From positions 8,123 to 72,122 of the forward strand of contig CAYIVF010000001.1 in the NCBI GenBank assembly GCA_964366875.1: a DNA stretch of 64,000 nucleotides, read 5' to 3'. The notes below the pieces were generated by a model. It was given only the letters and a program-made list of their open reading frames with translations, ran no database searches and was not told the origin of the DNA. The stretch is from an uncultured Candidatus Saccharibacteria bacterium (lineage in GTDB: Bacteria; Patescibacteriota; Minisyncoccia; Minisyncoccales; Staskawiczbacteraceae). Shown here one piece after another: positions 462 to 27,094 of the stretch. A program made the translations under genes and the position numbers. How positions within the stretch are numbered: position 1 is the stretch's first letter; every line of letters begins with the position of its first letter.

Positions 462-2500
462 TGTTTGGCTTTAACGAAGTCGCACTCTTTGTTAGAACAC
501 TTTATCTGCTTTCTTTTTGTTTCTATTAGAATAGAATCGCACTTGGGGCAGAACTCATTTATGGGCTTGTCCCACAAGGCAAAGTCGCATTTTGGAAAGG
601 TGCTGCATCCATAGAATATTTTTCCTTTCTTTGTCTTTCTGACAACAATTTCTCCTTGTTGGCACTTTGGGCATTTTATGCCTAAGTTTTTGTTTTTATC
701 TTCTACAGATTCCGTATATTTGCATTCAGGGAATTTTGAGCAAGCGTAAAACTTCCCAAACTTTCCAAAGCGCTCGATTAACGGGGCTCCGCACTTGGGG
801 CAGATTTTATTTGTTTCTTTTACCAGGTCTGATTTTTTTACTTCTTTGTATTTTTCTTCAAGATTTTTTGAAAAAGGATTGTAAAAATCCCTGCAGGTTT
901 TCTGCCATGTATCTTTGTTTTCTGCTATTTCATCTAATTCTTTTTCCATTTTTGCCGTAAAATCAATATCAACTATTTCCGGGAAGTTTTTTACTAAGAC
1001 ATCATTTACTACAGTTCCTATTTCAGTGGGAACAAATCTTTTTTGTTCATTTTTTTCAACATAGTTTCTTTCTTGTATGGTAGATAGGGTGGGCGCATAG
1101 GTTGAAGGCCTGCCTATGCCGTATTTTTCAAGTATTTTTATCAAACTGGCCTCGGTATATCTTGCAGCAGGCTCTGTAAAATGCTGGATTGAGTCTAATT
1201 TTACAAGTTCTAAATTATCTTTCTTTTCTAAAGAAGGCAATTCTTTTTCTTCAAATTTTGTTGGGTATATTTTTAAGAATCCATCAAACTTTAATGTTTG
1301 TCCATTTGCTCTGAATGTGTAATCATTTGCCTTGATGTCAGCGGAGACAGAATCAAAAACTGCGGGTTGCATTTGGCAGGCAATAAACCTTTGCCATATT
1401 AAAGTGTATAACTTTAATTGCCTGCTATCAATGCCGCTTAAAGATTCTGGCGTTCTGTCTGCATAAGTGGGCCTTATGGCTTCGTGCGCTTCTTGGGCTC
1501 GGGGTGCCCCTTGGATCGTTTTTGTTTTGTATCTTACTATTTTTCCCACCCAATAATTTTCTCCGTATTTTTCTGTTATATGTTTTTTCGCGGAAGATAA
1601 AGAAGCGTCAGAAAGATTTAATGAGTCTGTCCTGTGGTAGGTGATGTGCCCTTCTTCATATAGGCGCTGAGCTAAAGACATTGTCATTTTTGCGGAAAAC
1701 TTAAACCTTTGCCAGGCCGCCTGCTGCAATGTGCTGGTAGTAAAGGGTGGAGCAGGATGTCTTTTTGTTTCCTTTCTTTCTACATTTTCAACTACATATT
1801 CAGCGCCTTTTAGGTTTTTGAGGATTTTGTCTCCTTCCTCTTTGTTTTTTATATACAACCTGTCTATTGCCTTATCGCTTTCTTTAATTAAGGAAGCTGA
1901 AAATTCTTCTCCTTCTTTTTTTAGCAGCGCTTCTATGCTCCAGTATTCTTCTGGCACAAATTTTTGAATTTCTCTTTCTCTTTCAACAACTAATCTTACA
2001 GCCACTGACTGCACTCTGCCGGCTGAAAGGCCTTTGCTGACCTTTTTCCACAAAAAAGGAGACAGCTTGTATCCTACAATCCTGTCTAAAATGCGCCTTG
2101 CCTGCTGAGCGTCTACTAAGTTCATATCAATGCGCCTTGGGTTTTTTATGGCCTCGTCAATGGCTGTTTTTGTAATTTCATGAAAAACAATTCTTTGAGG
2201 ATTATCCAGCTTTAAAGCTTCTTTCAAATGCCAGGCAATTGATTCTCCTTCGCGGTCTTCGTCGGTTGCCAGTATGGTGCTGTCTGCTTTGACTGATTCT
2301 TTTTTAAGAGTAGAAACAACTTTTCTGGCTTTTATCGGTATGACATATTTTGGTTCAAAATTATGTTCAATATCAACGCCAAGTTCTTTTTCAGGCAGAT
2401 CTCTTACATGGCCCATACTTGCAAGAACTTGATAATTTTTTCCTAAGAATTGTTTTAGAGTCCTCGCTTTAGTTGGACTTTCCACTATTACTAAATTCAT
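437..2500 (-). CDS. topA: DNA topoisomerase I with C-terminal zinc-ribbon repeats
   Basis: 687 aa. TOPRIM N-terminus (VIVESPTKARTL), conserved topo IA core, multiple C4 zinc ribbons (CPKCGAPL..., CPKCQQGE..., CPKCDS...). Confidence 0.9.
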   Translation of the reverse strand: MNLVIVESPTKARTLKQFLGKNYQVLASMGHVRDLPEKELGVDIEHNFEPKYVIPIKARKVVSTLKKESVKADSTILATDEDREGESIAWHLKEALKLDNPQRIVFHEITKTAIDEAIKNPRRIDMNLVDAQQARRILDRIVGYKLSPFLWKKVSKGLSAGRVQSVAVRLVVEREREIQKFVPEEYWSIEALLKKEGEEFSASLIKESDKAIDRLYIKNKEEGDKILKNLKGAEYVVENVERKETKRHPAPPFTTSTLQQAAWQRFKFSAKMTMSLAQRLYEEGHITYHRTDSLNLSDASLSSAKKHITEKYGENYWVGKIVRYKTKTIQGAPRAQEAHEAIRPTYADRTPESLSGIDSRQLKLYTLIWQRFIACQMQPAVFDSVSADIKANDYTFRANGQTLKFDGFLKIYPTKFEEKELPSLEKKDNLELVKLDSIQHFTEPAARYTEASLIKILEKYGIGRPSTYAPTLSTIQERNYVEKNEQKRFVPTEIGTVVNDVLVKNFPEIVDIDFTAKMEKELDEIAENKDTWQKTCRDFYNPFSKNLEEKYKEVKKSDLVKETNKICPKCGAPLIERFGKFGKFYACSKFPECKYTESVEDKNKNLGIKCPKCQQGEIVVRKTKKGKIFYGCSTFPKCDFALWDKPINEFCPKCDSILIETKRKQIKCSNKECDFVKAKQWQTTYRK

Positions 2501-2541
2501 TTTTTTGAATACATTTTTTTAACTATACCACAGATTTTTTA

Positions 2542-4479
2542 TTATCTTAACTTTTCTACTGCTTCTGATAAAATTTGGCTATACAAGTTTAAGCCGATTT
2601 TGTTTATTGCTCCGGATTGTTCTTTGCCTAAAATGTTTCCTGCTCCACGCAGTTCTAAGTCTTTTATTGCAACTCTGTACCCTGCGCCCAACTCTTTTGC
2701 ATCTTCTAATGCTCTTAGGCGTTCTTTAGCTGCTGTCGTTAAAGATTTTTGGTTGTATAAAAAGTAAGCAAAAGAATCTGTGTTTGACCGTCCGACTCTT
2801 CCCCTTATCTGGTGCGCCTGCGAAAGGCCCAGGCGCGTGGCGTCTTCTACTATAATGGTATTTACGTTTGGCAGGTCTAATCCGTTTTCAATAATTGTGG
2901 TGGCGACTAGTATGTTTGTTTTTTCTTTTTGAAAGTCGTCCATTATTTTTATCAATTGTTTTTCGTGCATCCTGCCGTGGATTGTGCCGATTTTAGCTCT
3001 CGGCGAAAGTTCTTTAATTTGTTGGGTTTTTGTTTCAATTGTTTGCACTTTATTGTGCAAGAAATAGACCTGGCCCTTCCTTTTTAGTTCAAAATTGATT
3101 GCTTTTTTAATTAGTTTTGTATTATATGGCAAAACCTGTGTTTTTATTGCCTGCCTGCCTTTTGGCGGAGTCTGAATCAAGCTTATATTCTTAAAAGCAG
3201 AAAGCGCCAAATATATGGTGCGGGGGATTGGTGTGGCTGACAAACTTAAAATATCCAAAGAGGATTTCGTCTGCCTTAGTTTTTCTTTTTGTTTTACGCC
3301 AAATCTCTGTTCGTCGTCAATTATTAACAGTTGAAGGTTTTTGAATTCTATATCTTTAGATAAGAGCCTGTGCGTGCCTATTACAATGTCTGTTCTTCCT
3401 TCTTTTAAATCTTTGGCTATCTTCTTTTGCTCTGCTCTTGTTTGCAGACGAGACAAAAGAGCTATTTTTATCGGGAACTTCTCAAATCTTTTTTTAAAGG
3501 TATTGTAATGCTGATTTGCCAAGATAGTCGTGGGGCAGATTATTGCTGTTTGTCTGTTGTTTGCTGAAGCTAATAAAGCAACTCTCATCGCTACCTCTGT
3601 TTTACCAAAACCAACGTCTCCGCAAACTATCCTGTCCATGGGTTTTTCTTTTTTTAAGTCCTTTTCTATATCTTCAATAGCTTGCAGCTGGTCTGGGGTT
3701 TCTTCGTATGCAAAGCCGGCTCTTAATTGGGATTCCATTTCTCTGTCTGGCAGATAGGCGGATCTCTGTGCTACTTCTTTTTGGGCGTATAAAACCAAAA
3801 GCTCTTTAGCTAGCTTTTCAACTTCTTCTTTAATCTTTCTTTTTGTTTTTTGCCAGAGATTAGACCCCAGCCTGGAAATTTTAGGGTCTGCAAACCCAAC
3901 GTATCTCGATAGTTTTCTTTCCAATCCTACGGGCACATACAGTTTGTCTTCCTGGCCGTATTCTAAAACATAATAGTCTTTTTCTATGCCCGCAAACCTG
4001 CCTATTCCATGGTCTAAATGCACTAAATAGTCATTGGGCTTTAATCCTTTTAGTTCTGAAAATAGTTTTTGAGATTTTAATTTCTTTTTTAGAATTTCTT
4101 TTGATTTCTTTTCATCTTCTATTTTTACATCCAGCAGTTTGAGCTCATCTATTTCATTTCCTAAAAAATCCAATCTAACAGCCTGCATTGTATTGATGGG
4201 GAACACATCTACTATCCCGCCCCTTTGAGAAAATTCGCCCGGAGCCTCAACCTTAAAAACCCTTTCATAACCCATTTCGTCTAATTTTCTTAAAAACTGC
4301 GAGAAGTTATAGCTGTGGTCTTTTTTAAGGAAAATAATGTTATCTTCGAAAAATGATTGGGAGCGCCTGGCTTCCAATATGCTCTGCAAGTTTTTCTCAA
4401 ACCAAAAAGCCTCCTTATCTAAAAAATAGGGGGTGATGCCAACTATTAAAATTTTATCTATATTACTTGTTGTACTCAT
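2542..4479 (-). CDS. mfd: Transcription-repair coupling factor, short form lacking N-terminal UvrB-homology domains
   Basis: 645 aa. CarD/TRCF RNAP-interaction domain (LVHLDHGIGRF) followed by DEAD/DEAH helicase motifs (GDVGFGKTEVA, DEQRFG, HGRM..., QLRGRVGR). Confidence 0.8.
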   Translation of the reverse strand: MSTTSNIDKILIVGITPYFLDKEAFWFEKNLQSILEARRSQSFFEDNIIFLKKDHSYNFSQFLRKLDEMGYERVFKVEAPGEFSQRGGIVDVFPINTMQAVRLDFLGNEIDELKLLDVKIEDEKKSKEILKKKLKSQKLFSELKGLKPNDYLVHLDHGIGRFAGIEKDYYVLEYGQEDKLYVPVGLERKLSRYVGFADPKISRLGSNLWQKTKRKIKEEVEKLAKELLVLYAQKEVAQRSAYLPDREMESQLRAGFAYEETPDQLQAIEDIEKDLKKEKPMDRIVCGDVGFGKTEVAMRVALLASANNRQTAIICPTTILANQHYNTFKKRFEKFPIKIALLSRLQTRAEQKKIAKDLKEGRTDIVIGTHRLLSKDIEFKNLQLLIIDDEQRFGVKQKEKLRQTKSSLDILSLSATPIPRTIYLALSAFKNISLIQTPPKGRQAIKTQVLPYNTKLIKKAINFELKRKGQVYFLHNKVQTIETKTQQIKELSPRAKIGTIHGRMHEKQLIKIMDDFQKEKTNILVATTIIENGLDLPNVNTIIVEDATRLGLSQAHQIRGRVGRSNTDSFAYFLYNQKSLTTAAKERLRALEDAKELGAGYRVAIKDLELRGAGNILGKEQSGAINKIGLNLYSQILSEAVEKLR

Positions 4480-5038
4480 TCATTGTCCTATCTAATCCTT
4501 CTTTGATAAAAAAATCAAGGGATTCTGCTGCTTTTTCAATTGTTTCGTTTATAATTTTTTGTTCATCTTCTGTAAATTTTTTAAGAACCAGTTTTTTTGT
4601 ATCTTGTATCTTGTATCTTGTATCTTGCGGTTTTATTCCGATGCGAAATCTGATAAGCCTGTCATTTCCAATGTTTTTAATTATACTTTCTACTCCTTTG
4701 TGTCCGGCAGAGCCGCGTTCTTTATTTATTTTTATTTTTCCTACCGGTAAATCTATATCATCGTGCACAATGAGTAAATTTGAAATTTGAAATTTGAAAT
4801 TTGAAATTATTTGCTTAACTGCTTTGCCCGAGTCATTCATAAATGTTTGGGGTTTTACCAAGACAATCTTATCCTCGCCAACCACGCCCTCCGAAACCAG
4901 TACCTCGGATTTTTTTTGCAGCTCAAATTCCGGAAAATCATTTTTCTCCGCAAATTTATCCAAAACCATAAATCCCACATTATGCCTTGTCCCTTCAAAT
5001 TTTTTGCCAGGATTCCCGAGTCCGACTATTATAATCAT
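4463..5038 (-). CDS. pth: Peptidyl-tRNA hydrolase
   Basis: 191 aa. MIIIVGLGNPGKKFEGTRHNVGF... is the canonical Pth N-terminus with catalytic His. Contains two 7-bp x4 tandem repeats. Confidence 0.9.
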   Translation of the reverse strand: MIIIVGLGNPGKKFEGTRHNVGFMVLDKFAEKNDFPEFELQKKSEVLVSEGVVGEDKIVLVKPQTFMNDSGKAVKQIISNFKFQISNLLIVHDDIDLPVGKIKINKERGSAGHKGVESIIKNIGNDRLIRFRIGIKPQDTRYKIQDTKKLVLKKFTEDEQKIINETIEKAAESLDFFIKEGLDRTMNEYNK

Positions 5039-5079
5039 ATTTATCTAATTTACCTTTTTTAACTTTATTTTTCAATTAT

Positions 5080-5931
5080 TTGCTTGAATTATTTCTCAAA
5101 AGGCGATATTGTAAAAAAAAGATGCTGAGTTTAAAATCAGAAAAATATTTTTTATTAATCGTTAAACCATATAATAATATGAATTCAAAAGAAATTGAGT
5201 CAATTGAAAAAAGATATTTTGAAGAGATTTATTTTTTTGTAGATAAAAATCTTTCGTTCTTCCTTGAAAGATTAAAATCAAAGAATGAAATAAAAAATGA
5301 TTGGCTAAAAATATTCAAAATAACAAGTAGGGCTGCATACAAAAAAGCTTCAGAATTAAATAAAGGCGCCGAAAGAGTGGTGCATAATTTATTTGGTCAA
5401 TATAGGTCATTTGCAGTTAATTCTTCGCCCATTGGTTCGGATTTAATGTTTGAAACTCCAGATGCTTTTATACATTTAGAAGTTAAAACTGCTACCGATT
5501 CTAATCCCGCAGATTTTAAAGGAAAAATACAAATAGCCCAAAATCAGACAACCTATGGAGTTAATCAGACAATAACAGGAAGTCGCTACCATTTTATACC
5601 TAGTTTACCTAAAATTTACTCAAACGGAAAAATCTGTTTGACTTATGTAATTCAAATAATACACGATAATGTAGAAGATTTACCCAAGATTATAATTTTA
5701 CTTTCAATACCCAATGGATTATTAAAGCGCACTTACGGTAATTGTATTAATTCCGGAAAACATTCGAAAAAATTAAACAAGTTAAAATCGAAAGGAGATA
5801 TAAGATTTTTATACAAGAAGGCTAAAAAATTCGAAAATTTAGAAAAAAAACCAAGTAGAATAAAAATTATTTATCCTCAAAGTTACTCTAAAAAATTACT
5901 TGAAGATTTTTTAGGACTGAAGGAATTATAA
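5080..5931 (+). CDS. Hypothetical protein; candidate Type II restriction endonuclease (PD-ExK-like motif). True start may be the internal Met at 5182
   Basis: 283 aa. Contains FETPDAFIHLEVKT (PD...ExK arrangement). Convergent with the adjacent DNA methyltransferase gene, 3' ends overlapping by 6 bp. Confidence 0.35.
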   Translation: MLELFLKRRYCKKKMLSLKSEKYFLLIVKPYNNMNSKEIESIEKRYFEEIYFFVDKNLSFFLERLKSKNEIKNDWLKIFKITSRAAYKKASELNKGAERVVHNLFGQYRSFAVNSSPIGSDLMFETPDAFIHLEVKTATDSNPADFKGKIQIAQNQTTYGVNQTITGSRYHFIPSLPKIYSNGKICLTYVIQIIHDNVEDLPKIIILLSIPNGLLKRTYGNCINSGKHSKKLNKLKSKGDIRFLYKKAKKFENLEKKPSRIKIIYPQSYSKKLLEDFLGLKEL

Positions 5932-7848
5932 TATTTTAATTTTATCACACCTTTTTTTTATAATATTTAGATAATCTTTTTGTAATTCTATACCAATTGA
6001 TTTTCTATTAAGTTCCCTTGCAACCTTTAAGCTTGTTCCACTTCCCACAAATGGATCTAAAACAATGCCGTTTACCGGACAGCAAGCCATTATAGCTTTT
6101 TTTGGTAGTTCTTCAGGAAATATTGCAAAATGGGAATCCTGTAATTTTCCAGTTGCAAAATCCCAAATATCACCAGGATTTTTACCTAACTCATGTGGTT
6201 TTACGGTTTGTAAAACATAATGCTCTTCAGTCATAATTTTATCGTATTTATCATCTTTAATTTCCAAAACTTTTTTTAGTTTTAACCAATCTTCTGGCTT
6301 AGGTAAACATCTTCCGCCTCTATCTGTCCTGAACCAATGTCCAGCAGTATCTTTATAGCCAAATATTTTATCTATTTCTTTACTTGAAATTCCTTTATTT
6401 TTTCTATAATTTTTTATGAAATGTATTATTTCAAGTTCTAAACTACTATCTATTTTGTGTTTTCTTTGTTTAGAATAAAATTCCCCATTAACAGATAATC
6501 TCGCCCCAGGCGAAGCGCCAAGATTTATTTTCTCAGTATTTTTAAATTTACCATTGTATTCATTTTTATTATTACTTGTTTTGTCTTTCCATTTTTCGTA
6601 TTCTTTGACAGATAGCGTTAATGGTAATTCTATTTTTTGATTATTTTTTTCCGTTAGTAAGATTTTTTGTTTAGAGGTTTTTTCTTTTTTCTCCCCATTG
6701 GTTTTATGTGCGATCCTAACAGAATCTAAATCAAAATAATATTCCGGTCTCAAATAACTATTAGGATTTTTAACAAATAAAAATATTGGTTCATAGGTGT
6801 TTGAAAATCTATCTTTTATCGACGAGGGCATTGCATTTGTTTTCCGCCATATTAAAACATTTCTTATTGCCCAACCATTTTTTTGCATTTCCATTGCTAG
6901 TCGAAAAGGGATCATTTGTAGATTCTTATCAACGTATTTATCTCCTATATTTAAAAAATATGCACCATCATCAGTTAAGACCCTTTTTAATTCATTTGTA
7001 ATGTCTATCATTTTTTTGATATATTCTTCTGGTGTTTTTTCATTGCCTATTTGTCCTCCCATTCCATAATCTCTTTGTCCCCAATAAGGTGGAGAGGTCA
7101 CAATGCAATTTATTGATTTGTCGGGTAGCATTTTTAACTTTTCTATAACATCACCAATAATCACTAGTGGTTCGGTATCTTTGGGTAAATCAATAAATTG
7201 ATGTTGGTTTGTTATTTTTTTTTGCAAAACCACTTTCTCTTTTAATTTTTCTAATTCTTCAAATTTTCTTATTATACTAACTACTTTTCCTTGTATTTCT
7301 AATTCTTTTACATAGATTGGTTTAAAATCAGGATTTGCCGGTTGTAGGCGAAATCCGTTTTTCTCTCTATAAATTTTTTTGAGAGTAGTTTCATTGCCAT
7401 TAATAAGCGCAACAACGCTTTCTCCGTTTTCTGCAGTGGATTGTCTTCTAATTATTACCTTGTCGCCGTTGAAGATACCCTCGTCAATCATACTATTGCC
7501 ACTTACCTCTAATGCAAAATTTTCACCGCTTTTGGATAGCAAATTTTTAGGAACTTTTATTTTCTCTGGAACATTGTATGTTATAAGCGGTTCGCCAGCT
7601 GTAATTGTTCCGAGCAAGGGAATCTCTACGAGTTCTGAATTTTTATTTTTTACCAATTCAATGGAGCGCGCCTTGTAATCTGTTTTTTCTAAATATTCTT
7701 TCTCTTTTAGTGTTTTTATGTATTGATGAGCTGTGGGTTTTTTTATTTTAAAATGCTTCGCAATTTCCTTGAGAGAAGGAGAGTAATCTTTTTTGCTAAT
7801 GTATTTTTTAATATAATCTAGAATTTGTTTTTGTTTCGGAGTTAACAT
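5926..7848 (-). CDS. Fusion protein: LexA-like repressor (HTH + S24 autopeptidase) joined to a beta-class DNA methyltransferase (SPPY motif, probably N4-cytosine or N6-adenine)
   Basis: 640 aa. Residues 1-200 align with LexA: IPLLGTITAGEPL (Ala-Gly cleavage site), EVSGNSM (catalytic Ser), TLKKIY (catalytic Lys). The rest carries motif IV (TSPPYWGQRDY) and C-terminal motif I (LDPFVGSGTS), i.e. the beta permutation of amino-MTases. Confidence 0.7.
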   Translation of the reverse strand: MLTPKQKQILDYIKKYISKKDYSPSLKEIAKHFKIKKPTAHQYIKTLKEKEYLEKTDYKARSIELVKNKNSELVEIPLLGTITAGEPLITYNVPEKIKVPKNLLSKSGENFALEVSGNSMIDEGIFNGDKVIIRRQSTAENGESVVALINGNETTLKKIYREKNGFRLQPANPDFKPIYVKELEIQGKVVSIIRKFEELEKLKEKVVLQKKITNQHQFIDLPKDTEPLVIIGDVIEKLKMLPDKSINCIVTSPPYWGQRDYGMGGQIGNEKTPEEYIKKMIDITNELKRVLTDDGAYFLNIGDKYVDKNLQMIPFRLAMEMQKNGWAIRNVLIWRKTNAMPSSIKDRFSNTYEPIFLFVKNPNSYLRPEYYFDLDSVRIAHKTNGEKKEKTSKQKILLTEKNNQKIELPLTLSVKEYEKWKDKTSNNKNEYNGKFKNTEKINLGASPGARLSVNGEFYSKQRKHKIDSSLELEIIHFIKNYRKNKGISSKEIDKIFGYKDTAGHWFRTDRGGRCLPKPEDWLKLKKVLEIKDDKYDKIMTEEHYVLQTVKPHELGKNPGDIWDFATGKLQDSHFAIFPEELPKKAIMACCPVNGIVLDPFVGSGTSLKVARELNRKSIGIELQKDYLNIIKKRCDKIKIL

Positions 7849-8422
7849 ATTGACATGTTTTTTATAAATACTATTATTATATTATACTAACATTTTACTA
7901 ACCTTGAAAGATGTCAACCTGTGGATAACTCAAAAGTTTACAAACTCTACGACCTCACCCAGGAGGGGATTAAAATCATGGAGAGTACGGGAGATTGAGA
8001 AAATGGAGAAGGAGAGGGTTTTTAATCAACTTAACTAGATAAAAATCCCCAATTGGAGATTTTTGCTAAATCATATTTTTGGTAAGGAAAGGAATTATCT
8101 AGTTCAATTTATCGTTACAATTAGCACGAATATAAAAATCCCTTAAATTAAGCCATATCCTTGTATATCTAAAAAATAATTATAATTCAGAATAGAACCT
8201 TCTAATGGCATTCCTTACCAAAAATCCGAAATGGTAAAAATCCTCGGGATAGCCCCTCGGGGTAGTCATTGATGAGCATTTTTTTCCAAGTCCCCCTTGA
8301 CATACAGCTATGAAGAGCGTAAGTTTAATTTAGGAGTTTTCATAGATTAAAGTAAATGAAAAAGAGTATTTTTATTTAGTTCATATTTTGTAAATTGTTT
8401 ATTATTAAGATATAATATAATT
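7849..8422. promoter_or_regulatory. Long AT-rich intergenic region with nested inverted repeats, four AAAAATCC motifs and one perfect DnaA box (TGTGGATAA, 7920-7928)
   Basis: 10-bp perfect inverted repeat aactagataa (8033-8042) / ttatctagtt (8100-8109) enclosing an inner hairpin aaaatc...gatttt; ttacca...tggtaa hairpin around 8210-8232. No ORF of 60 aa or more. Confidence 0.4.
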
Positions 8423-8815
8423 ATGACAAATCAAAAAGATCCACTCGCGTCACTTTTCACGAGCGACGCAAAAGCAATTGATAGGCAGAAGCTAGCAGAG
8501 CTTTTGGAGCCTTTTGTTATTATTGATGAGGGTTCCAAAGAGTTCAGTTTTCACGATACCTTTAATTCCCTGAAAACAAACATGCAAAAAATTGAAATCA
8601 TTCTTTCTGCTGCAAAAGCCAGAGCTCTGTTTTTCAATGAGGTCGATGGATTATCTCCAGGAGATATTATCACTCTTGGTGTTATGCCCGAGGGCAGCGT
8701 GAAGACAAGTCTAAAAAAACTTTTTGATAGGCACAAAATCAAGAAAGATAAAGATGGTAGATATTTTATACCCTCGTACCGTATTTCAGAATTGGTCAAA
8801 CAATTTAATAACTAA
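8423..8815 (+). CDS. Hypothetical protein, member 1 of a four-gene paralogous array
   Basis: 130 aa. C-terminal region (KIEIILSAAKARALFF...DGRYFIPSYRISELV) shares a pattern with the next three genes. Confidence 0.5.
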   Translation: MTNQKDPLASLFTSDAKAIDRQKLAELLEPFVIIDEGSKEFSFHDTFNSLKTNMQKIEIILSAAKARALFFNEVDGLSPGDIITLGVMPEGSVKTSLKKLFDRHKIKKDKDGRYFIPSYRISELVKQFNN

Positions 8816-8826
8816 CTTTTATTATT

Positions 8827-9240
8827 ATGACTACGAACAAAACAATTGAGCAGAGAGTGGAGGAGCTTGAAAAACGGGTGGCTACGCTAGAGAGGGCATC
8901 CTCGCGTGGTGTAGTATCTTCGGCGTTAAAAGCAAAAAAGTCATCTGCGAAAGAATTCCTTATGACAAAAGAACTCAAGACTGAGATACAAAAGACACTT
9001 GCGCTCGCTTATTATCTCGAGTATATGGAGGGATTCCAGAGCTTCAATGTTGCAGATCTTGAAGCTGTATTTCGTTCGGCAAAAGAGAAGCTTCCAAAGA
9101 ATATAAACGATGCAGTGAATAAAAACATTGCCCATGGTCTCATAATGGAAGCGGCAGAAAAAAAGGATAACAAGAAGGCGTGGGTAATTACATCAACGGG
9201 TGAGAAATATGTTGAAGAGGAGTTTAAAAAGTCTAATTGA
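8827..9240 (+). CDS. Hypothetical protein, member 2 of the paralogous array (N-terminal coiled coil)
   Basis: 137 aa. EELEKRVATLER coiled coil, then the shared domain (LALAYYLEYMEG...KKAWVITSTGEKYVEE). Confidence 0.5.
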   Translation: MTTNKTIEQRVEELEKRVATLERASSRGVVSSALKAKKSSAKEFLMTKELKTEIQKTLALAYYLEYMEGFQSFNVADLEAVFRSAKEKLPKNINDAVNKNIAHGLIMEAAEKKDNKKAWVITSTGEKYVEEEFKKSN

Positions 9241-9247
9241 AAAATAT

Positions 9248-9682
9248 ATGATTGAAAAATATATGGATAAGAATCAGTTGATACATAAATTAAACCAAGC
9301 ACAGGGCATTATTTCCGAGTGTCTTGCCGGCCTGCGAGAAGAAGAAATTAAAAAACCGGAAAAAAACGAGGAGAAGAGGGAAAAAAGTTTAACTATAGAG
9401 ATAGATTTTAGCAAGCCAATTCGTCCCTTTTTTAGGGAGTACACAGAGGGTAAAAGCGGACCTAAGAAATTCACCTTACTCGTTGCATATTCAACAAAAG
9501 GTGATATGTCGCAGTCAGTTTCGTTAAATGAGATCGAAAAACAGTGGAAAAAGATGAAAAGTTTGTTGGGTGGCGATTTCAATCGTTTTTATTCATCTCA
9601 AGCGAAAGATAAAGATTGGGTAGATTCGCCAAAGCAGGGTTTATACGTATTACGTCCGAATTGGAGGGAGGTTCTTAATTAG
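9248..9682 (+). CDS. Hypothetical protein, member 3 of the paralogous array
   Basis: Start chosen at the first ATG after the upstream stop (the track ORF begins at 9200). Shared domain FTLLVAYSTKG...KQGLYVLRPNWREVL. Confidence 0.45.
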   Translation: MIEKYMDKNQLIHKLNQAQGIISECLAGLREEEIKKPEKNEEKREKSLTIEIDFSKPIRPFFREYTEGKSGPKKFTLLVAYSTKGDMSQSVSLNEIEKQWKKMKSLLGGDFNRFYSSQAKDKDWVDSPKQGLYVLRPNWREVLN

Positions 9683-9685
9683 TTT

Positions 9686-10399
9686 ATGAATTTGCCACAA
9701 AATATAACAATTTTTCTCAAACAGTTCCCGCTTAAAGATATGAGTGGCGAGCAGGTTTTTGTGGCAATCTGCTATTATCTCGCAGGCGCGAAAAAGAGTG
9801 TTGAAGTTGAGGTACAAGATATAAAAAGTAAATGGAGTAAAACTCTAATAGGCAAAACTTACAATCCGGCATTTGCATATCGCGCCCAAAGATATTTAAA
9901 CCCTTGTGGCAAGGGGAGGGTATGTTTGACCGATGAAGGAATTGAATATATTGAGCCTTTGATTCAACCGACATTATTGTCTAGAATCGGACTCACTGTG
10001 TTCAAAAAGGGCAGTGCTTATTCATTTGATAAGTTTCTGCGCGGCATTTTTAAGAAAGCAACGAAAAATGTTGGTATTGCAGATACATATGTAGCCGGAA
10101 ACATTTTTGACAACCTTTTAGATGAAATTCCTAAGACTGTGCCGATTCAGTTTCTTTACGGGAGTGATACTGGCGGATTTACTTCCAAGTCTATACGATT
10201 TGCCAAAGAATATAATTTTCAAATGAAAGAGAGTAGGCAATTTCACGACCGTTTTATCATAGTTGATGGCAGGGGCTATATCATAGGCCCATCATTAAAG
10301 GATGCGGCAGACAAGAAACCATCCACACTAGTTGTTTTAAGCGATTCTGATTCCAGAAAGTTAGTTAGTCTTTTTTTAGATTTATGGAGCGGCAAGTAA
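9686..10399 (+). CDS. Hypothetical protein, member 4 of the paralogous array, with a C-terminal PLD-like (HxR...D...G.S) motif
   Basis: 237 aa. N-terminal shared domain (VFVAICYYLAGAKK...KGRVCLTDEGIEYIE). C-terminal FHDRFIIVDGRGYIIGPSL matches the HxKx4Dx6GS spacing of phospholipase-D family nucleases with K replaced by R. Confidence 0.4.
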   Translation: MNLPQNITIFLKQFPLKDMSGEQVFVAICYYLAGAKKSVEVEVQDIKSKWSKTLIGKTYNPAFAYRAQRYLNPCGKGRVCLTDEGIEYIEPLIQPTLLSRIGLTVFKKGSAYSFDKFLRGIFKKATKNVGIADTYVAGNIFDNLLDEIPKTVPIQFLYGSDTGGFTSKSIRFAKEYNFQMKESRQFHDRFIIVDGRGYIIGPSLKDAADKKPSTLVVLSDSDSRKLVSLFLDLWSGK

Positions 10400-10480: not shown

Positions 10481-10501
10481 TTGGCCGACAAAAAAATTAG
10501 G
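10481..10501 (+). repeat. Repeated intergenic module, half-copy E1 (ttggccgacaaaaaaattagg)
   Basis: Near-identical to 10939-10960, immediately upstream of a gene start. Confidence 0.6.
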
Positions 10502-10509
10502 AGAAATTT

Positions 10510-10935
10510 ATGAAAAATTTAGATAGAAGTTTAGACAGCATAAAAGAGGCTAAAAAATTTTCTCTGGAAATGAAAATTTCTGCTTTACAGGAACTTATTT
10601 TGCAGAGATTTCAAGCACTTACAACGATTAGCTCGATAAGTTTTGCCGTTGCTGGAATTATAATTTCAACCAGAGGCGATCTAATCCGGAATGAAAAGCT
10701 TGCTTTTTTCTCGGCGGCCTTATTTATCGTTATTGCTATTACCAGCTTTGGACGGCATCTATGTTTGATTCGTAGCGACATCAAGGCCATAGCTAAAAAG
10801 ATAAAAGATTTACCAGGCGAAGATTGGAGCAAGCCGCTTGAAGAAAAAGAGTTTAAGGCCGATTGGTGGCCAGAAATATTGTATATCATTTTAGTTATTG
10901 GTGTTTTGTTATTCGGCTTATCTTTTTGTTTATGA
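10510..10935 (+). CDS. Small integral membrane protein (three predicted TM helices)
   Basis: 141 aa with hydrophobic stretches ISSISFAVAGIIIST, FFSAALFIVIAITSF, ILYIILVIGVLLFGLSF. Confidence 0.5.
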   Translation: MKNLDRSLDSIKEAKKFSLEMKISALQELILQRFQALTTISSISFAVAGIIISTRGDLIRNEKLAFFSAALFIVIAITSFGRHLCLIRSDIKAIAKKIKDLPGEDWSKPLEEKEFKADWWPEILYIILVIGVLLFGLSFCL

Positions 10936-10938
10936 AGA

Positions 10939-10996
10939 TTTGGCCAACAAAAAAATTAGGTCGAAAAATTAATTGAGAAATAATAAAAAATATGGC
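10939..10996 (+). repeat. Repeated intergenic module, full copy E2 (ttggccaacaaaaaaattagg + gaaaaattaattgagaaataataaaaaatatggc)
   Basis: First half matches E1 (10481-10501); second half matches E3 (11708-11740). Confidence 0.6.
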
Positions 10997-18702: not shown

Positions 18703-18934
18703 ATTTAATATACAAAGTGGGGCTTGACCTGCTTTTTGCTTGGAGTAAAATATAGAAATGGCTTCGCCATTTATGTAATTAATCGCTCGGTTGGAATAAA
18801 AGTTTACTTTTATTCCTTCCTTACTCATAATTATAGTAATGCATTAGACCTCTTACTTAAAAATTTTTTATCCCGAAGATTTTTAAGTTTTAAAATTAAT
18901 AAAAGCCGTGAGGCATTTTTTTGTCCCCAATTTC

Positions 18935-21900
18935 ATGACACCAAGAAAAGAAAAAATAAAAAATCACATTGAAAAAGTACAGAAAAGAGATGGAAGAATC
19001 GCTGATTTTGAGCAGCAAAAAATAACTGACGCTATTTTTAAAGCAATCACTGTAGCTGACCAGGGCGATGGAGTAAAATCAAAAAGAGCGTCGGAAAAAG
19101 TTGCGCAAATTCTAAACAGAAGATTCAAAATAGGAGAAATCCCCAGCATTGAACAAATACAAGACATTGTAGAAGAAGTTTTGATACTAGAAGGCCTAGT
19201 TGATACGGCTCGCGCATATATTCTTTATAGAGAGCAGAGAAGAAGGATCAGAGAGATGGGTACGATTTCTGATGAGTCTTCAGAAAAAATTGATAGCTAT
19301 CTAAAAGAGCTTGATTGGCAGATAGCTGAAAACGCCAACATGACATTTTCTTTGCAGGGACTGAACCAATATGTGGGTTCATTCATTTCTAAAAAATATT
19401 GGCTAAACAAGATTTATCCAAAAGAAATAAGGGAGGCAGCAGCTTCAGAAGATTTTCATATCCATAATTTAGAGCTGCTTGCACCGTATACATTTTTCGG
19501 GAGGGAAGTTATAATTGTTAAAAAAAATAACAGAATAAAATTATCCTCCTTTAAAGATATATATGAAGAGATCGAACAACAAGAAATTTTACTGAATGAA
19601 AAAGACGGTGCTTGGGCAAAATACCCCGAGGGTTTATTTATACTAGATAATGATGGATGGGTTAAGGTTTCCCGGTTAGTGAGAAAAAATAAAGAGAGAG
19701 AAATGAGATTTATAAAATCTGAACAAGGTAGAAGCGTTATTGTTACCGATAACCATCCGTTTATAATAAAAAGAAACGATAAAGAAATAGAAATAGAATC
19801 TAAAGATGTAAAAGAATCTGACCTAATTTTTTCCGCCGATATCCGTTATCTTTTAAAAAATGAAGGTCTTTTTTCGAAGAAATATATATACTTGGCCGAA
19901 GAATTGATTAATAAAAAACACAATGAATTTTTTCTTGAGGGATTTGACTGGCAGGATTTTGTCAATAATTGGGGCGGGTCATTGCAGGCAAAGGGGACAC
20001 TTAGCGTTTCTAACGGAGCCAACAGCCTGGATAATTATTTTGAATTGACAGAAGATATTGGATATTTAGTCGGTATTTTCATAGCAGAGGGAAATTATCA
20101 TAGCTGGAAACTGCAGATTACCAACAGCGACGAAGAAATTATTAAAAAAATTCAAAGGATAGGCGCTTCTATCGGAGTAAGGTCATATATTAACGAAAAG
20201 GAAGGCGCCAAAGCAGTTACCTTTAATTGCAGTACTCTAAAAATGATTTTTGAAAAAGTTTTTCAGATAAAGGAGCTCAGTAAAAATAAAAATTTGCCGC
20301 CAGATATATTAACTTACAATACAGATTTTATAAAAGGCATTATCGCTGGCATCATTGACGGAGATGGCAGTGTCCGCTCGCATAAAAGCAAGCATGACGA
20401 TTCCTTGTCGCAGGTTTTGATTAGAGTCTCTTCGCGAACTTTGCTGGAACAACTATCAGTTCTTCTTCAGTTTTTCGGGATTGTGGCAAGAGACAGAATT
20501 AGTAGCGAAGATATTGGAAAGGTAAATATTTTTAGAGGGAAAGAAATTATACAAAATTATCCGATATACGGACTTTGTTTTTCAAAAAAGCAGGGAATTA
20601 ATTTTCCTTCATTTAAATATCAGAAAGCGGCTGCTACTTCAAAACATTGGAGGGCAGAAGAATACGGATGGAATAAAGTTTTAAATAATAAATTTACCAC
20701 AGTTGCTGATGAAGAAATTTTTGATATTACCACCGAATCTGGCACTTTTATTTGCAATGGACTGTTGGTGCACAACTGCGCGGGGTGGGACTTATACGAT
20801 TTTTTAAAAAGAGGATTTGGCGGAGTTTCGGGAAAAATAGAATGCAAACCTCCAAAACATTTGGGCGTGGCTTTAAGCCAACTGGTAAACGTTTTATATA
20901 CCTTGCAGGGAGAAACAGCGGGAGCCAACGCTGTTTCTAATTTTGATACTCTTTTAGCTCCGTTCATCAGGTACGACCATTTAACATACAAAGAAGTAAA
21001 GCAGGCAATGCAGGAATTTTTATTCGGCTGCATGGTGCCAACTCGCGTTGGTTTTCAAACCCCGTTTTTAAATGTATCTTTGGATATAAAACCGCCCACA
21101 TTTCTTGCAAAACAGCCGGTAATTATTAAAGGAGAACCGCAGAAAGAAACTTATGGCGAGTTTCAGGAAGAGATGAACATGTTTATCCGCGCATTTTATG
21201 AGGGTTTAATGGAGGGAGACGCGAAAGGCAGGCCGTTTACTTTTCCCATACCAACCGTTTCTATCGGTAAAGATTTTGACTGGAATAATTCTAATTTAGA
21301 TGCCTTGTGGGAAGCGACTGCAAAATATGGCATAAACTATTTTTCAAATTTTATACATTCAGATATGAGTCCAGAGGATGCTCGCTCGATGTGTTTGGAT
21401 TCCAAAGAAGAAATTTTGATAAGAAATTCCAAAAAAATTAAAAGAATGTCTATTAAGGAGACAGCTGATAACTATAAAGTTGGCGATTTTGATAGAGAAG
21501 GGTGGGCAGAATGCGAAAAGGAAAAAAACCTGGAAGTTTTATCTTTAAATCCAGACAACTTAAAAACAGAATGGTCTCCGGTAAAAAGATTTTTCAGAGT
21601 TTTTGATGATAAGGCTGTCGAAATTTTTACAGAGGATGGTAAAAGCGCTGTTTTTTCGCAAAAGCATCCTATGCCAGTTTTAACAGAGAGAGGTATTGAA
21701 ATGAAATGGTCAAAAGACATAGAAAAAGGAGATTATCTTCTTTCTATAAAAAAAGCAGAAGATGTTTTAGCAAAGGAGTATCAAAAAATAAATGACTTGG
21801 ACTTAGACAATGATTTGTCGTCTATTTTAGGATATTTTATTGCCGACGGAAATTATCTTTTTGAAAGTAGGAGAAGATATAAACATTATGGAGAACCAAG

Positions 21901-24793
21901 AGGGATGCAGTTTACATTTAAAACTGGAGACAAAGAAAACATAAAAACAATAAAAGGTTTAGTTAAAAAAGTATTTGGCATAGATTGTAAAGAAAAACAA
22001 GACCCAAGGTACAATACTTATTATTTATATATTTATAATACAGAGCTTGCAAGAAGGTTGCATAATGCAGGATTTAAGAAATACGGCAGATTACCTCAAG
22101 TCATATTTAATTCTCCCATAGAAGTTATCAGAAAATTTTTAGAGTTTCATTTTAAGGGTGATGGTTATAAAAAGAGGGGTGAAATTCATATCAATGATTT
22201 GGAACTATCAAGAGATTTAGTTTTATTATATTCTTTGACCGGTCAACCAGTGACCTATAAATTAAGGAAGAACAGCCAGGTTATACGTTTACAACATTCA
22301 AAATCTAAAATAAAAAAGAATAATGGCTGGTTAAATAACCCAATTCTATCAGAAAGAGTGCCGGGGTGGATGGGATTTTCAACATTTAAAGTGCCCGGTC
22401 TTACAAAATCGAGAATGGTAGGATTTGATGTATTAGAAAAATATAATGCGCACACAGAAAATAGTCTAAAAATTAAAAATAGCGACATTTATGTTAGCAG
22501 AGTTAAAAATGTAAGCACAAAAAATTATAAAGAATTGAAAGAGTTTTATGATGTAGAGTTGGAAAAAAATCATTTATTTTTGCATTCCTTGGGACAAGTG
22601 TCTTTTAATTGTTGCCGGCTTCGTTTAGACAACAGGGAACTTTACAAAAGAGGCGGCGGATTGTTTGGTTCGGCCCCCTTAACCGGTTCAATCGGGGTTG
22701 TTACGATTAACATGCCCAGGATTGGATATTTATCAAAAACTAAAAAAGATTTTTTTGAAAGATTGGGCCACTTGATGGATTTAGCAAAAGAAAGTTTGGA
22801 AATTAAAAGAAAGGCGCTGGAGAACTTTATGGATAAAGGCCTTTATCCTTATTCTCGCCACTATTTAGACGGAGTTAAGCTTTTAAGAAACTCATATTTT
22901 GGAAATCATTTTTCTACTATCGGGCTGATAGGAATGAATGAAATGCTTTTGAATTTTCTAGAAGAAAACATAGCTTCAAAAAATGGCAAGAAGTTTGCTT
23001 TAGAAGTTTTAGATTTTATGAGAGAGAGGATGATAAAATATCAAGAAGAAACAGGCAATTTATATAACTTGGAGGCGACTCCGGGCGAAGGAACAAGCTA
23101 CAGGCAGGCAAAAACAGACAAAGAAAAGTATCCGGATATTATTACGGCAGGCACCGAAGAGGTTCCATATTATACGAATTCAACTCATTTGCCGGTGGAT
23201 TATACTACAGATCCCTTTGAGGCGTTAAAACTGCAAGATGAACTTCAAACAAAATATACTGGCGGCTGCATAGAGGGGGGAAATAAGGTTTTAACAGATA
23301 AAGGATTGTTGCTCATTGAAGATATTGTGAAAAATTTTGATGAATTAAAACCTATCAAAGCGTTAAGCTATAACAAAGACCAAAAAAATAGCGAATGGGA
23401 TAAAATTTTGGAAGCAGTAAAAATTGATGTAAAAAAACATAATAAAATCAAGATAAAAGGAGAAAAAAACTTAGATATTGTTACATCTGATTGGCATCCT
23501 TTTTTTGTTCTGAAAAGATTTAAGCCAAATCCCGCTTGCCCTATTTGCCACACAGAAACATTTACTCTTAAAGGATTTGCTGGTCATATTAGATGGTATC
23601 CAGATTGCGGTAGAAAATATCAGGATTTTCCCAAGTACCATGTAATAGAAAAAAGAGCAGATGAATTAAAGGTGGGCGATTATATCCTGCAGAATTCATA
23701 TAATTTATATCCTGAAAAAGAAACAGAGCTCAATAATGATTTAATGTGGCTCATTGGATTTTTTATCGGTGACGGCTCTATCTCAAAATATATTGATAAT
23801 AGGGGCGGAAACAATTTAGAGAGGCATAAAATTAGGTTTTTTAGCGAGCACAAAGAAGCATTAAATAAAATAGTAGAAATCCTTAATAAATATTTTTCTG
23901 CTGAAGTAAAAATTATTAAAAACGATAAAAGAAGCGAAAAACTTTTAGAGGTTGCAAGTTCTAAAAAAGATATAGTAGATTTCTTTTTCAAATATGGATT
24001 TTGGGCAGGTGAAAAATCCAGCCGCATATTTATTCCTGATAAAGTGAAAAACAATATCAATAAAGAAAATATTTTTTCTTTATTATCTGGTTTAGCAGAC
24101 AGCGATGGGCATATAAGCAAACGTGATGGAGATTTTGAATATTATTCTATTTCCCAAAAATTGGCTGATGATATTTTAGAAATATGTTCTATTGCCGGAA
24201 TTATGTTCAGCAAGGCTATAAAAAAGACTAAAAGAAAAAACGAATTAGACATCTGGAGGATAAGAATACCCGCCTATGAAGTTACGAAAATAAAATCCCA
24301 CCTAACAAACACTATTCATCTTTTAAGAATTAAAGAGAATTTATCAAACAGAAAGAAACGTTATTTGCCCGTTGTGAGAGTAAAAGAAGTTTCTAAAGTT
24401 GACGTAAAAGATAATCAATTTTACGACTTGATGACAGAAAATAACCACAATTATTTGGCAGGAAAAGATAGTTTAGTATTTGTCCACAATACCGTCTGCC
24501 ACTTGTTTTTAGGAGAGAAAATTTCTGACCCCCAAATGGCAAAAAACTTAGTCAGAAAAGTTTTTGAGAAATTCCATTTGCCGTATATAACGCTTACACC
24601 AACTTTTTCAATTTGTCCTACGCATGGCTATTTATCAGGAGAGCACTTTGAATGCCCGCAATGTACGGTAAAGCAGCCCTGCGAGGTTTATTCAAGAGTA
24701 GTGGGGTATATAAGGCCGGTTCAGCAGTGGCATAAAGGCAAAAAGCAAGAATACAAAGAAAGAAAAGAGTATAAGATGCCAGCTGCAGTATAG
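18935..24793 (+). CDS. nrdD: Anaerobic (class III) ribonucleoside-triphosphate reductase interrupted by three inteins
   Basis: Track ORF 18908-24793 (1961 aa); start more likely MTPRKE at 18935. ATP-cone N-terminus; extein segments match NrdD blocks (HIHNLE, CAGWDL...KPPK, TPF, GGGLFGS...IGVVTINMPRI, YYTNSTHL, C-terminal CxxC...CPxC glycyl-radical/Zn region). Estimated extein total about 720 aa. Confidence 0.85.
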   Translation: MTPRKEKIKNHIEKVQKRDGRIADFEQQKITDAIFKAITVADQGDGVKSKRASEKVAQILNRRFKIGEIPSIEQIQDIVEEVLILEGLVDTARAYILYREQRRRIREMGTISDESSEKIDSYLKELDWQIAENANMTFSLQGLNQYVGSFISKKYWLNKIYPKEIREAAASEDFHIHNLELLAPYTFFGREVIIVKKNNRIKLSSFKDIYEEIEQQEILLNEKDGAWAKYPEGLFILDNDGWVKVSRLVRKNKEREMRFIKSEQGRSVIVTDNHPFIIKRNDKEIEIESKDVKESDLIFSADIRYLLKNEGLFSKKYIYLAEELINKKHNEFFLEGFDWQDFVNNWGGSLQAKGTLSVSNGANSLDNYFELTEDIGYLVGIFIAEGNYHSWKLQITNSDEEIIKKIQRIGASIGVRSYINEKEGAKAVTFNCSTLKMIFEKVFQIKELSKNKNLPPDILTYNTDFIKGIIAGIIDGDGSVRSHKSKHDDSLSQVLIRVSSRTLLEQLSVLLQFFGIVARDRISSEDIGKVNIFRGKEIIQNYPIYGLCFSKKQGINFPSFKYQKAAATSKHWRAEEYGWNKVLNNKFTTVADEEIFDITTESGTFICNGLLVHNCAGWDLYDFLKRGFGGVSGKIECKPPKHLGVALSQLVNVLYTLQGETAGANAVSNFDTLLAPFIRYDHLTYKEVKQAMQEFLFGCMVPTRVGFQTPFLNVSLDIKPPTFLAKQPVIIKGEPQKETYGEFQEEMNMFIRAFYEGLMEGDAKGRPFTFPIPTVSIGKDFDWNNSNLDALWEATAKYGINYFSNFIHSDMSPEDARSMCLDSKEEILIRNSKKIKRMSIKETADNYKVGDFDREGWAECEKEKNLEVLSLNPDNLKTEWSPVKRFFRVFDDKAVEIFTEDGKSAVFSQKHPMPVLTERGIEMKWSKDIEKGDYLLSIKKAEDVLAKEYQKINDLDLDNDLSSILGYFIADGNYLFESRRRYKHYGEPRGMQFTFKTGDKENIKTIKGLVKKVFGIDCKEKQDPRYNTYYLYIYNTELARRLHNAGFKKYGRLPQVIFNSPIEVIRKFLEFHFKGDGYKKRGEIHINDLELSRDLVLLYSLTGQPVTYKLRKNSQVIRLQHSKSKIKKNNGWLNNPILSERVPGWMGFSTFKVPGLTKSRMVGFDVLEKYNAHTENSLKIKNSDIYVSRVKNVSTKNYKELKEFYDVELEKNHLFLHSLGQVSFNCCRLRLDNRELYKRGGGLFGSAPLTGSIGVVTINMPRIGYLSKTKKDFFERLGHLMDLAKESLEIKRKALENFMDKGLYPYSRHYLDGVKLLRNSYFGNHFSTIGLIGMNEMLLNFLEENIASKNGKKFALEVLDFMRERMIKYQEETGNLYNLEATPGEGTSYRQAKTDKEKYPDIITAGTEEVPYYTNSTHLPVDYTTDPFEALKLQDELQTKYTGGCIEGGNKVLTDKGLLLIEDIVKNFDELKPIKALSYNKDQKNSEWDKILEAVKIDVKKHNKIKIKGEKNLDIVTSDWHPFFVLKRFKPNPACPICHTETFTLKGFAGHIRWYPDCGRKYQDFPKYHVIEKRADELKVGDYILQNSYNLYPEKETELNNDLMWLIGFFIGDGSISKYIDNRGGNNLERHKIRFFSEHKEALNKIVEILNKYFSAEVKIIKNDKRSEKLLEVASSKKDIVDFFFKYGFWAGEKSSRIFIPDKVKNNINKENIFSLLSGLADSDGHISKRDGDFEYYSISQKLADDILEICSIAGIMFSKAIKKTKRKNELDIWRIRIPAYEVTKIKSHLTNTIHLLRIKENLSNRKKRYLPVVRVKEVSKVDVKDNQFYDLMTENNHNYLAGKDSLVFVHNTVCHLFLGEKISDPQMAKNLVRKVFEKFHLPYITLTPTFSICPTHGYLSGEHFECPQCTVKQPCEVYSRVVGYIRPVQQWHKGKKQEYKERKEYKMPAAV
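19502..20776 (+). mobile_element. Intein 1 in nrdD with LAGLIDADG homing-endonuclease domain (N-terminal boundary uncertain)
   Basis: Ends ...NGLLVHN followed by Cys+1 (CAGWDL). Block B-like TDNHPF. LAGLIDADG motifs IGYLVGIFIAEGNY and IKGIIAGIIDGDGS. The first residue is not the expected Cys/Ser. Confidence 0.6.
21392..22609 (+). mobile_element. Intein 2 in nrdD with LAGLIDADG homing-endonuclease domain
   Basis: Begins CLDSKEEILI after ...ARSM; ends ...VSFN followed by Cys+1 (CRLRLD aligns with NrdD GCRSF). LAGLIDADG motifs ILGYFIADGNY and KFLEFHFKGDGY. Confidence 0.65.
23267..24490 (+). mobile_element. Intein 3 in nrdD with LAGLIDADG homing-endonuclease domain and an internal zinc ribbon
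   Basis: Begins CIEGGNKVLTDKG after ...KYTGG; ends ...SLVFVHN followed by Thr+1. LAGLIDADG motifs LMWLIGFFIGDGSIS and LLSGLADSDGHIS. Cys cluster CPICHTE...CGRK. Confidence 0.65.
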
Positions 24794-26902: not shown

Positions 26903-27094
26903 TGAAACCCAGACCTACTCTAGATAAAAGCAAGCAGTATCTCCTAAATCAGCTCGCTCTCGGAAACCTTAATCGCCAAGATTCTGGCTGTTTTCTCTTT
27001 TAAGAGAGATTTCGGCGTTAGCAATCCTTGAACTGCCAAACATTAGCCTACTTTCGTTTTTTATTATACTAAAAAATACAATTATTGGAAGTCA

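Follow-up and report, generated by a model that had tools for sequence, protein, structure and literature searches.

A winged-helix gene cassette ending in a predicted HDR-type phospholipase D-superfamily effector, found beside restriction-modification genes mainly in Patescibacteria

We analysed an array of four consecutive small genes in DNA of an uncultured Candidatus Saccharibacteria bacterium (GenBank assembly GCA_964366875.1, contig CAYIVF010000001.1, positions 8,123 to 72,122). This stretch of 64,000 nucleotides (nt) is called the window below, and positions are counted from its first letter. The array occupies 8423-10399 and encodes proteins that we call P1 (8423-8815, 130 amino acids, aa), P2 (8827-9240, 137 aa), P3 (9248-9682, 144 aa) and P4 (9686-10399, 237 aa), all on the + strand. 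The four open reading frames (ORFs), which a first-pass annotation of the letters alone had delimited, were found at these positions and on this strand, and independent gene calls on identical metagenome contigs returned the same four lengths. The start codon of P3 (ATG at 9248) is backed by the lengths of its homologues as well as by these gene calls. The gaps P1/P2, P2/P3 and P3/P4 are 11, 7 and 3 nt, and the four genes form a single tight + strand operon. A promoter-like site (TTGTAA-17-TATAAT, 8388-8416, + strand) ends 7 nt before the start codon of P1 and is a candidate operon promoter by consensus match only; promoter-like sites are no more numerous in the region than shuffling predicts. 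Groundwater (Hainich) metagenome contigs carry P4 copies identical to that of the window, and the closest genome matches are metagenome-assembled genomes of Patescibacteria, Paceibacterota and Parcubacteria.

Winged-helix domains of the four products

The first-pass annotation had described a segment shared by all four proteins, consisting of a hydrophobic helix followed 40-60 aa later by a hairpin-like end. This segment is a winged helix (winged helix-turn-helix, wHTH), as seen in the AlphaFold models of P4 and P1 and, for P3, through its homology to the N-terminal domain of P4 (P4-N). In both models the described helix and hairpin turn out to be helix 1 and the beta-wing. As had been noted, P1-P3 carry the domain at the C-terminus and P4 carries it at the N-terminus. 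P4-N (9686-9970, + strand; residues 1-95) was modelled with helices at 21-32, 43-48 and 62-66, wing strands at 71-75 and 78-81 and a further helix at 83-92 (pLDDT 88-96). The model of P1 (pLDDT 93.8, pTM 0.85) has an N-terminal small alpha/beta unit, a winged helix at residues ~53-114 (nt 8579-8764, + strand) with a helix at 53-71 and the wing at ~107-114, and a C-terminal helix.

The closest relationship within the array is that between P3 and P4. An N-terminal helical segment of P3 is followed by a winged helix of the P4-N type (residues 52-136, nt 9401-9655, + strand), and comparison of P3 52-136 with P4 1-82 by hhalign gave a probability of 98.9% and an E-value of 2.1e-17 over 81 columns. 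Pairwise BLAST of P3 against P4-N gave E 2.8e-4, and the two families found each other reciprocally by phmmer and hmmsearch in the fetched loci. Judged by these sequence comparisons, P3 clearly carries a full paralogue of the N-terminal winged-helix module of P4.

In P2, a coiled-coil-like helix (residues 5-24) and a basic linker precede a probable winged helix at ~53-134 (nt 8983-9228, + strand). Comparisons of P2 with P4-N and P3 by hhalign gave E-values of 7.8e-4, 4.1e-3 and 2e-4 with probabilities of 25%, 8% and 47%, and the alignments were in register across the whole domain (71-74 columns). A natural chimera, L003_5018, joins a P2-type N-terminal helix to a P4-N-type winged helix. Together, the hhalign comparisons and the chimera suggest that P2 probably has a winged helix distantly related to those of P4-N and P3.

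The comparisons of P1 with P2, P3 and P4-N by hhalign were not significant (E 0.04-0.4). Foldseek and a profile search of the PDB returned weak matches for P1, all to wHTH regulators (MarR, ArsR, GntR, TFE, Lrp), and members of the P1 family matched the wHTH parts of AbiEi and Csa3 weakly. The four-way resemblance is therefore one of common fold, with shared descent demonstrable for two members and probable for a third: the domain that had been proposed as common to all four is specifically homologous in P3 and P4-N, and probably in P2, while P1 shares the fold without significant sequence similarity. Against PDB sequences the P2 profile had no match and the P3 profile found nothing useful, and scans of P1-P3 in Pfam, NCBIfam and PHROGs yielded nothing significant. 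The P1 family comprises 183 representative clusters, and more than 218 homologues of P2 were found. Near the N-terminus of the P1 family a DPLxxL motif is nearly invariant (residues 6-12, 8438-8458 in the window); the model is least confident there, and the motif may act as a docking peptide.

The four products are all basic (isoelectric points 8.8-9.4). A role of the small proteins as DNA mimics or anti-restriction factors was rejected for this reason.

The C-terminal domain of P4

The AlphaFold model of P4, built on 45 homologues (pLDDT 87.7), has a winged helix at residues ~20-92 and, after a flexible linker (94-99), an alpha/beta domain that spans 102-235 (pLDDT ~82-95). From fold and profiles, the C-terminal domain was placed at 9986-10399 (+ strand; residues 101-237, stop codon included). 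The best Foldseek matches of P4 in the PDB were to TrmBL2/TrmB (5bpd, 5bpi, 5bqt, 3qph; E 1e-9 to 8e-7), and the next were to NucT, FAM83, Nuc, Zucchini, PLD3 and poxvirus F13 (E 4e-7 to 1e-5), with MITD1 (2ymb, 4a5z) at E 3e-6 to 5e-5. A library of viral structures returned proteins of the phospholipase D (PLD) superfamily only. The PLD fold proposed for the fourth protein was thus borne out by the model and by its matches to NucT, Nuc, Zucchini, MITD1 and PLD3. A match to Munc18, obtained with the full P4 profile against the PDB, was dismissed as spurious. We place high confidence in the domain assignments.

The putative active-site motif is encoded at 10244-10300 (+ strand) and reads H187-D188-R189-x4-D194-x6-G201-P-S203-L-K205. 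The first-pass annotation had picked out FHDRFIIVDGRGYIIGPSL as a PLD-type motif, and the motif is real and invariant with the spacing H-x-R-x4-D-x6-G, in which His, Asp and Gly keep the canonical distances; the serine, however, stands one residue later than described (G-P-S), and a lysine takes the place of the asparagine. The replacement of K by R in the HKD motif had been read correctly and is that of the described HDR variant of MIT_C/PB-PLD1 (PMC12065111). Across the 45 homologues of P4, residues D133, H187, D188, R189, D194, G201, S203 and K205 are invariant; D133, an acidic residue upstream of the motif, is encoded at 10082-10084 (+ strand). Of 63 distant relatives, drawn from many phyla, 60 retain the pattern HDRFxxxD...G-x-S-x-K, and in those fused to ORF6N or RhuM-N the H, D, R, D, G and S are invariant and the K nearly so.

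In the analysis of the Menshen system, the HDR variant has an acidic residue after beta-2 and the HDR before beta-5, and is a predicted effector domain; this type of PLD domain is common to MIT_C of MITD1, PB-PLD1 of Menshen NsnC and the C-terminus of BrxL, with a predicted enzymatic role (PMC12065111). P4 has the same two elements, D133 and H187-D188-R189, both invariant, with model strands at 129-137 and 189-193. Its C-terminal domain corresponds to the HDR branch of the PLD superfamily, a named branch of predicted enzymes. P4 resembles MITD1 by structure only and matches NsnC weakly (PADLOC, E 7e-4), and it shares the D133-type acidic residue and the HDR with these proteins and BrxL. The partners of the domain differ from one protein to the next, namely a ParB/PIN context in Menshen, an AAA+ ATPase in BrxL and an MIT domain in MITD1, and the function is a predicted one in all of them. 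A further match was found to NCBIfam VPA1262_N_dom (E 3e-8).

Among characterised nucleases, P4 shares its fold with Nuc, NucT and Zucchini (Foldseek E 4e-7 to 3e-6). A profile of the broad family aligned its HDRF..D on the HDK..D of Salmonella Nuc, which was the best match among PDB sequences at an E-value of only 0.019. H187 and R189 of P4 align with the catalytic His94 and Lys96 of Nuc, and D194 with the Asp of Nuc. P4 differs from the Nuc-type enzymes in having Arg for Lys and G-P-S-L-K for GSxN, and its score with Pfam PLDc_2 is sub-threshold. Each P4 chain has one HKD-type motif, and a dimer is thereby implied. BfiI is a single-HKD PLD enzyme with a separate DNA-binding domain attached, as in P4. 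By analogy with these enzymes, the fold, the motif and the relatives point to P4 as a putative nuclease.

P4 also matched the profile of the PADLOC candidate PDC-S05 (E 4.5e-16), where P4 104-211 aligns with positions 173-281 of a model of 306. The match covers the PLD part only, and P4 is without the ORF6N/RhuM-N part at the N-terminus of that model. The two proteins share a homologous C-terminal domain, the HDRFxxxD...G-x-S-x-K motif and the order of a DNA-binding domain followed by PLD; they differ in that PDC-S05 begins with ORF6N/RhuM-N (KilA-N-like) and P4 with a winged helix. PDC-S05 is also a single gene, whereas P4 stands behind one to four small winged-helix genes, one of them paralogous to its own N-terminal domain. 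A representative of PDC-S05 is reported to have reduced plating of T7 and T5 by ~1000-fold in E. coli B (preprint, 10.1101/2024.09.26.614923). If its architecture is as seen here, the HDR-type PLD domain is the sole candidate enzymatic part of this protective protein. More than 335 genome matches have a P4-type C-terminal domain fused to ORF6N (KilA-N-like) or RhuM-N, which is the PDC-S05 architecture. A crude phmmer search around these ORF6N-PLD relatives with Hsd proteins of the Candidate Phyla Radiation (CPR) was mostly negative and is not evidence of absence of restriction-modification (RM) genes. Tandem pairs of ORF6N-PLD(HDR) genes were seen in loci of Bacilli and Adlercreutzia (L052, 6575-8334; L068, 6428-9058); their products may be heterodimeric pairs, echoing the duplication that links P3 and P4.

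Conservation and surroundings of the cassette

The 71 clusters of P4 homologues were traced into ~25 distinct loci. P4 is constant and last in every cassette and is preceded by 1-4 small genes from five families. The gene order P1-P2-(X/Y)-P3-P4 is fixed across proteins down to ~35% identity, where X (110-125 aa) combines a coiled coil with a 'GFF' winged helix and Y is a protein of ~190 aa. Wherever upstream sequence exists, at least one small gene coding for a coiled coil and a wHTH lies immediately 5' of P4. Homologues of P2 on long contigs are all within such cassettes; P1 or P2 is missing from many loci, and cassette composition varies. Fusions of P1 with an X-type winged helix occur in high-GC organisms, as proteins of 220-275 aa, and in locus L021. 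The carriers are mostly Patescibacteria, with a few Acidobacteriota and Elusimicrobia. P4 proteins that are 67-76% identical to the window copy occupy different contexts, and for this reason we consider the cassette mobile. In IMG/VR we found no full-length P4 and only three distant matches to its C-terminal domain, and the idea of a phage-borne cassette was dropped on this result.

The P1-X fusion proteins of other phyla gave alignments too diverse for a pattern scan, and a single-protein scan found nothing. A four-sequence P1-X alignment led to one suggestive locus, L096 (1631-3308 of a high-GC metagenome contig), where a 300-aa multi-wHTH protein with a terminal X-type domain overlaps a 269-aa ORF. 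The latter contains the motif RNKRDFGH (R-x6-H), ends in a wHTH-like tail and had no Pfam match. This locus may hold a comparable system whose effector is HEPN-like.

The neighbourhood survey of the cassette loci bears out the defence or accessory setting that the first-pass annotation had suggested. In the window, a type II RM pair stands beside the operon at 5080-7848, as had been claimed, and is described here as context only: a restriction-endonuclease-like gene (5080-5931, + strand) and a single ORF of 640 aa (5926-7848, - strand) in which a LexA DNA-binding domain and an S24 peptidase are fused to an N4/N6 DNA methyltransferase. This LexA-S24-methyltransferase fusion could make the pair an SOS-responsive RM system. 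A LexA gene (L011) or an S24 one (a JGI contig) also stands directly 5' of the cassette elsewhere. In type I loci the cassette lies between hsdM and hsdS (L003 and L008/L009), and in L010, L014 and L024 hsdS begins within ~20 nt 3' of P4. Elsewhere it lies 3' of an MmeI-like type IIG enzyme (L006/7/12), 3' of a ResIII helicase (L018) and, on one JGI contig, 3' of an nSTAND3/SLFN-helicase/S24 protein near MazE/MazG. The remaining loci have housekeeping genes alone around the cassette. RhuM-type genes classically sit in the same slot between hsd genes that the cassette occupies (PMC3710099).

The neighbours of P4 in L014 are housekeeping genes, with no hsdM or hsdR within 7 kb. In this locus (2447-5256) and in L024 (521-3172) the cassette stands with hsdS and without hsdM or hsdR in the fetched flanks, and the P1 gene of L014 is shrunk to a fragment of 54 aa. 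Either a type I operon is in decay at these two loci, or cassette and HsdS function there as a unit.

The PLD domain is not the only one found behind the P4-type winged helix. In P0070, on an ENA contig of 973 nt, a winged helix with 62% identity to the P4 type is followed by a Ymh domain (PF09509, E 2e-33) bearing an R-x4-H motif in place of PLD, and in L015 an X-type wHTH-Ymh gene lies 3' of P4 (5273-5965). Ymh is a HEPN family associated with RM operons and has been proposed as a PrrC-like second-line effector (PMC3710099). Such an exchange of PLD and HEPN on the same targeting domain is what one would expect from an effector and not from a ligand sensor.

Interpretation, alternatives and other features of the window

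Our preferred explanation, which we favour with moderate confidence, is that the array is an RM-linked mobile accessory effector cassette, mainly of Patescibacteria, which would act in second-line defence or abortive infection with P4 as the effector. By analogy with Nuc, NucT, BfiI and Zucchini, two P4 chains would pair their PLD domains into one metal-independent active site with His187 as nucleophile, and the dimer would cut nucleic acid gripped by its winged helices. P1-P3 would most likely restrain or direct P4: they would repress transcription of their own operon, or serve as decoys or partners that act on the same sites or interface; P3, as a duplicate of the binding module of P4, could compete with P4 or cap it. 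We give this detail of decoys and regulators low confidence. P4 would be released when the RM system is overwhelmed or inhibited, and the embedding of the cassette in RM loci suggests such a back-up role once restriction fails. The module would then be comparable to PrrC, RloC, RhuM and Ymh-HEPN genes inside RM operons. It resembles PrrC, RloC and Ymh-HEPN in lying inside or beside such operons and in having a P4 relative with a Ymh HEPN domain in the place of PLD, but differs in being without an ABC-ATPase or MORC sensor, in its PLD-type effector and in its winged-helix paralogues as accessories.

Several observations weigh against this explanation. About half of the loci (L001, L002, L013, L020, L022, L090, L092) have no recognisable RM or defence gene adjoining. 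P4 has Arg189 and Lys205 where the HKD motif canonically has Lys and Asn, and Pfam MIT_C gave no match to P4 at E<=1. With PLDc_2 the window P4 scored 13 bits (E 0.096), below the gathering score of 27 bits; sub-threshold matches to this family occur in 25 of the 45 family members (best E 2.8e-5) and reach 25.9 bits in the distant relatives. The best whole-protein structural matches of P4 are the non-catalytic regulators TrmBL2/TrmB, and MITD1, the best-studied structural relative, has been described as binding membranes (as cited in PMC12065111). Finally, the protection by PDC-S05 is reported in one preprint only, for a protein whose N-terminal domain differs from that of P4.

The alternative that survives best, which we nevertheless consider unlikely, is that of a toxin-antitoxin (TA) or addiction module, in which P4 would be a DNA-targeting toxin and the small winged-helix protein(s) next to it, P3 above all, would be antitoxin and autorepressor. 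The cassette would then stabilise the RM/hsdS locus or the island around it and serve no dedicated anti-phage purpose. A small gene of DNA-binding type always just 5' of P4, with a 3-nt gap, is the arrangement typical of type II TA pairs; there is a weak resemblance of P1 family members to the wHTH of the antitoxin AbiEi, the cassette is kept with an orphan hsdS in L014, and its distribution is patchy and independent of context. However, two to four different small genes exceed the needs of a TA pair, and the effector-domain family has been reported as anti-phage in a single gene with no antitoxin. This alternative also overlaps with an effector cassette for defence, as TA and abortive infection are not mutually exclusive.

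We give less credence to the possibility that the cassette encodes transcription factors only, P4 being a regulator or nucleoid protein like TrmB/TrmBL2. Its PLD-like domain would then be non-catalytic and serve for ligand binding or oligomerisation, P1-P3 would be additional regulators, and the cassette would control neighbouring RM genes such as hsdS in the manner of controller proteins. P4 does have the two-domain architecture of the TrmB regulators, with wHTH, linker helix and PLD-like fold, and these proteins are its top whole-chain Foldseek matches; all four products are basic winged-helix proteins, and P4 is repeatedly found just 5' of hsdS. The invariant His/Arg/Asp/Ser/Lys set of P4, on the other hand, is aligned with the catalytic His and Lys of Nuc and is lost in TrmBL2, where the weaker alignment has D, L and P at the H/D/R positions and the Ser and Lys are missing. 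Pfam TrmB and Regulator_TrmB had no match in P4 or its 45 homologues at E<=0.1, and P4 differs further from TrmBL2 in standing in a mobile RM-linked multi-gene cassette. The swap of PLD for a HEPN RNase domain in P0070 is effector-like, and the same C-terminal domain is the sole candidate enzymatic part of PDC-S05. That there is no real four-gene unit at all, only a generic small helix-rich look with P3 and P4 belonging together through local duplication, is very improbable: it would fit the non-significant comparisons of P1 (E 0.04-0.4), the probabilities of only 8-47% for P2 and the absence of P1 or P2 from many loci, but homologues of P1 and P2 occur almost only before P4-type genes and in fixed order, the L003_5018 chimera joins a P2 N-terminus to a P4-N-type wHTH, and other phyla have fusions of P1 with the X-type wHTH that these cassettes contain.

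Returning to the effector cassette, its components are of kinds already known, namely winged helices, a PLD domain of the HDR type and accessory effectors embedded in RM loci, and the C-terminal domain has a candidate label in PADLOC. In the literature searched, we found no description of a cassette with paralogous winged-helix partners, its CPR distribution or its link to hsdS, and the multi-gene arrangement is absent from Pfam, NCBIfam, PHROGs and PADLOC. A further-reaching version, which is rather unlikely in our estimate, is that of a multi-component immune system of CPR/Patescibacteria, in which a winged-helix-targeted HDR-PLD or HEPN nuclease would be gated by combinatorial winged-helix proteins, including decoys that copy the DNA-binding module of the effector, and coupled to type I RM, possibly to HsdS itself, as the adjacency of P4 and hsdS persists where hsdM and hsdR are missing. 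Were this so, the HDR/MIT_C branch of the PLD superfamily would receive a function for the first time. In Patescibacteria, whose genomes are small, few defence systems are recognised besides RM, and the recurrent RM-embedded cassette is a concrete candidate for a second layer of defence in them. It also offers a testable model for whether the HDR (MIT_C-like) branch, including human MITD1 and the BrxL C-terminus, is enzymatic, and for how paralogues of the targeting domain of an effector could control that effector. Should the cassette be only a TA pair or a set of regulators, it would still be of use to mark the variable, RM-associated regions of CPR genomes.

The intergenic region between the methyltransferase fusion and P1 (7849-8422, 575 nt) had been described as long and structured. 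Its folding is no better than that of shuffles (z -0.7 and -1.0), so that the structure did not hold up, and it has no Rfam match; in the whole 64-kb window no Rfam family reached its gathering score. Downstream of P4, the gene at 10510-10935 was rejected as a member of the cassette, since no homologue of it lies 3' of P4 elsewhere; it encodes a predicted membrane protein of 141 aa. A 21-nt direct repeat, TTGGCCRACAAAAAAATTAGG, stands on either side of this gene (10481-10501 and 10940-10960) with a chance expectation of none, and may have arisen by duplication of a 5' region or be left from an insertion. Farther along the window, one kilobase (27001-28000) is GC-rich, with a GC content of 0.54, and an ORF of 1961 aa at 18908-24793 (+ strand) is ribonucleotide reductase-like, with three insertions that, by the look of the translation, resemble inteins of the LAGLIDADG type.

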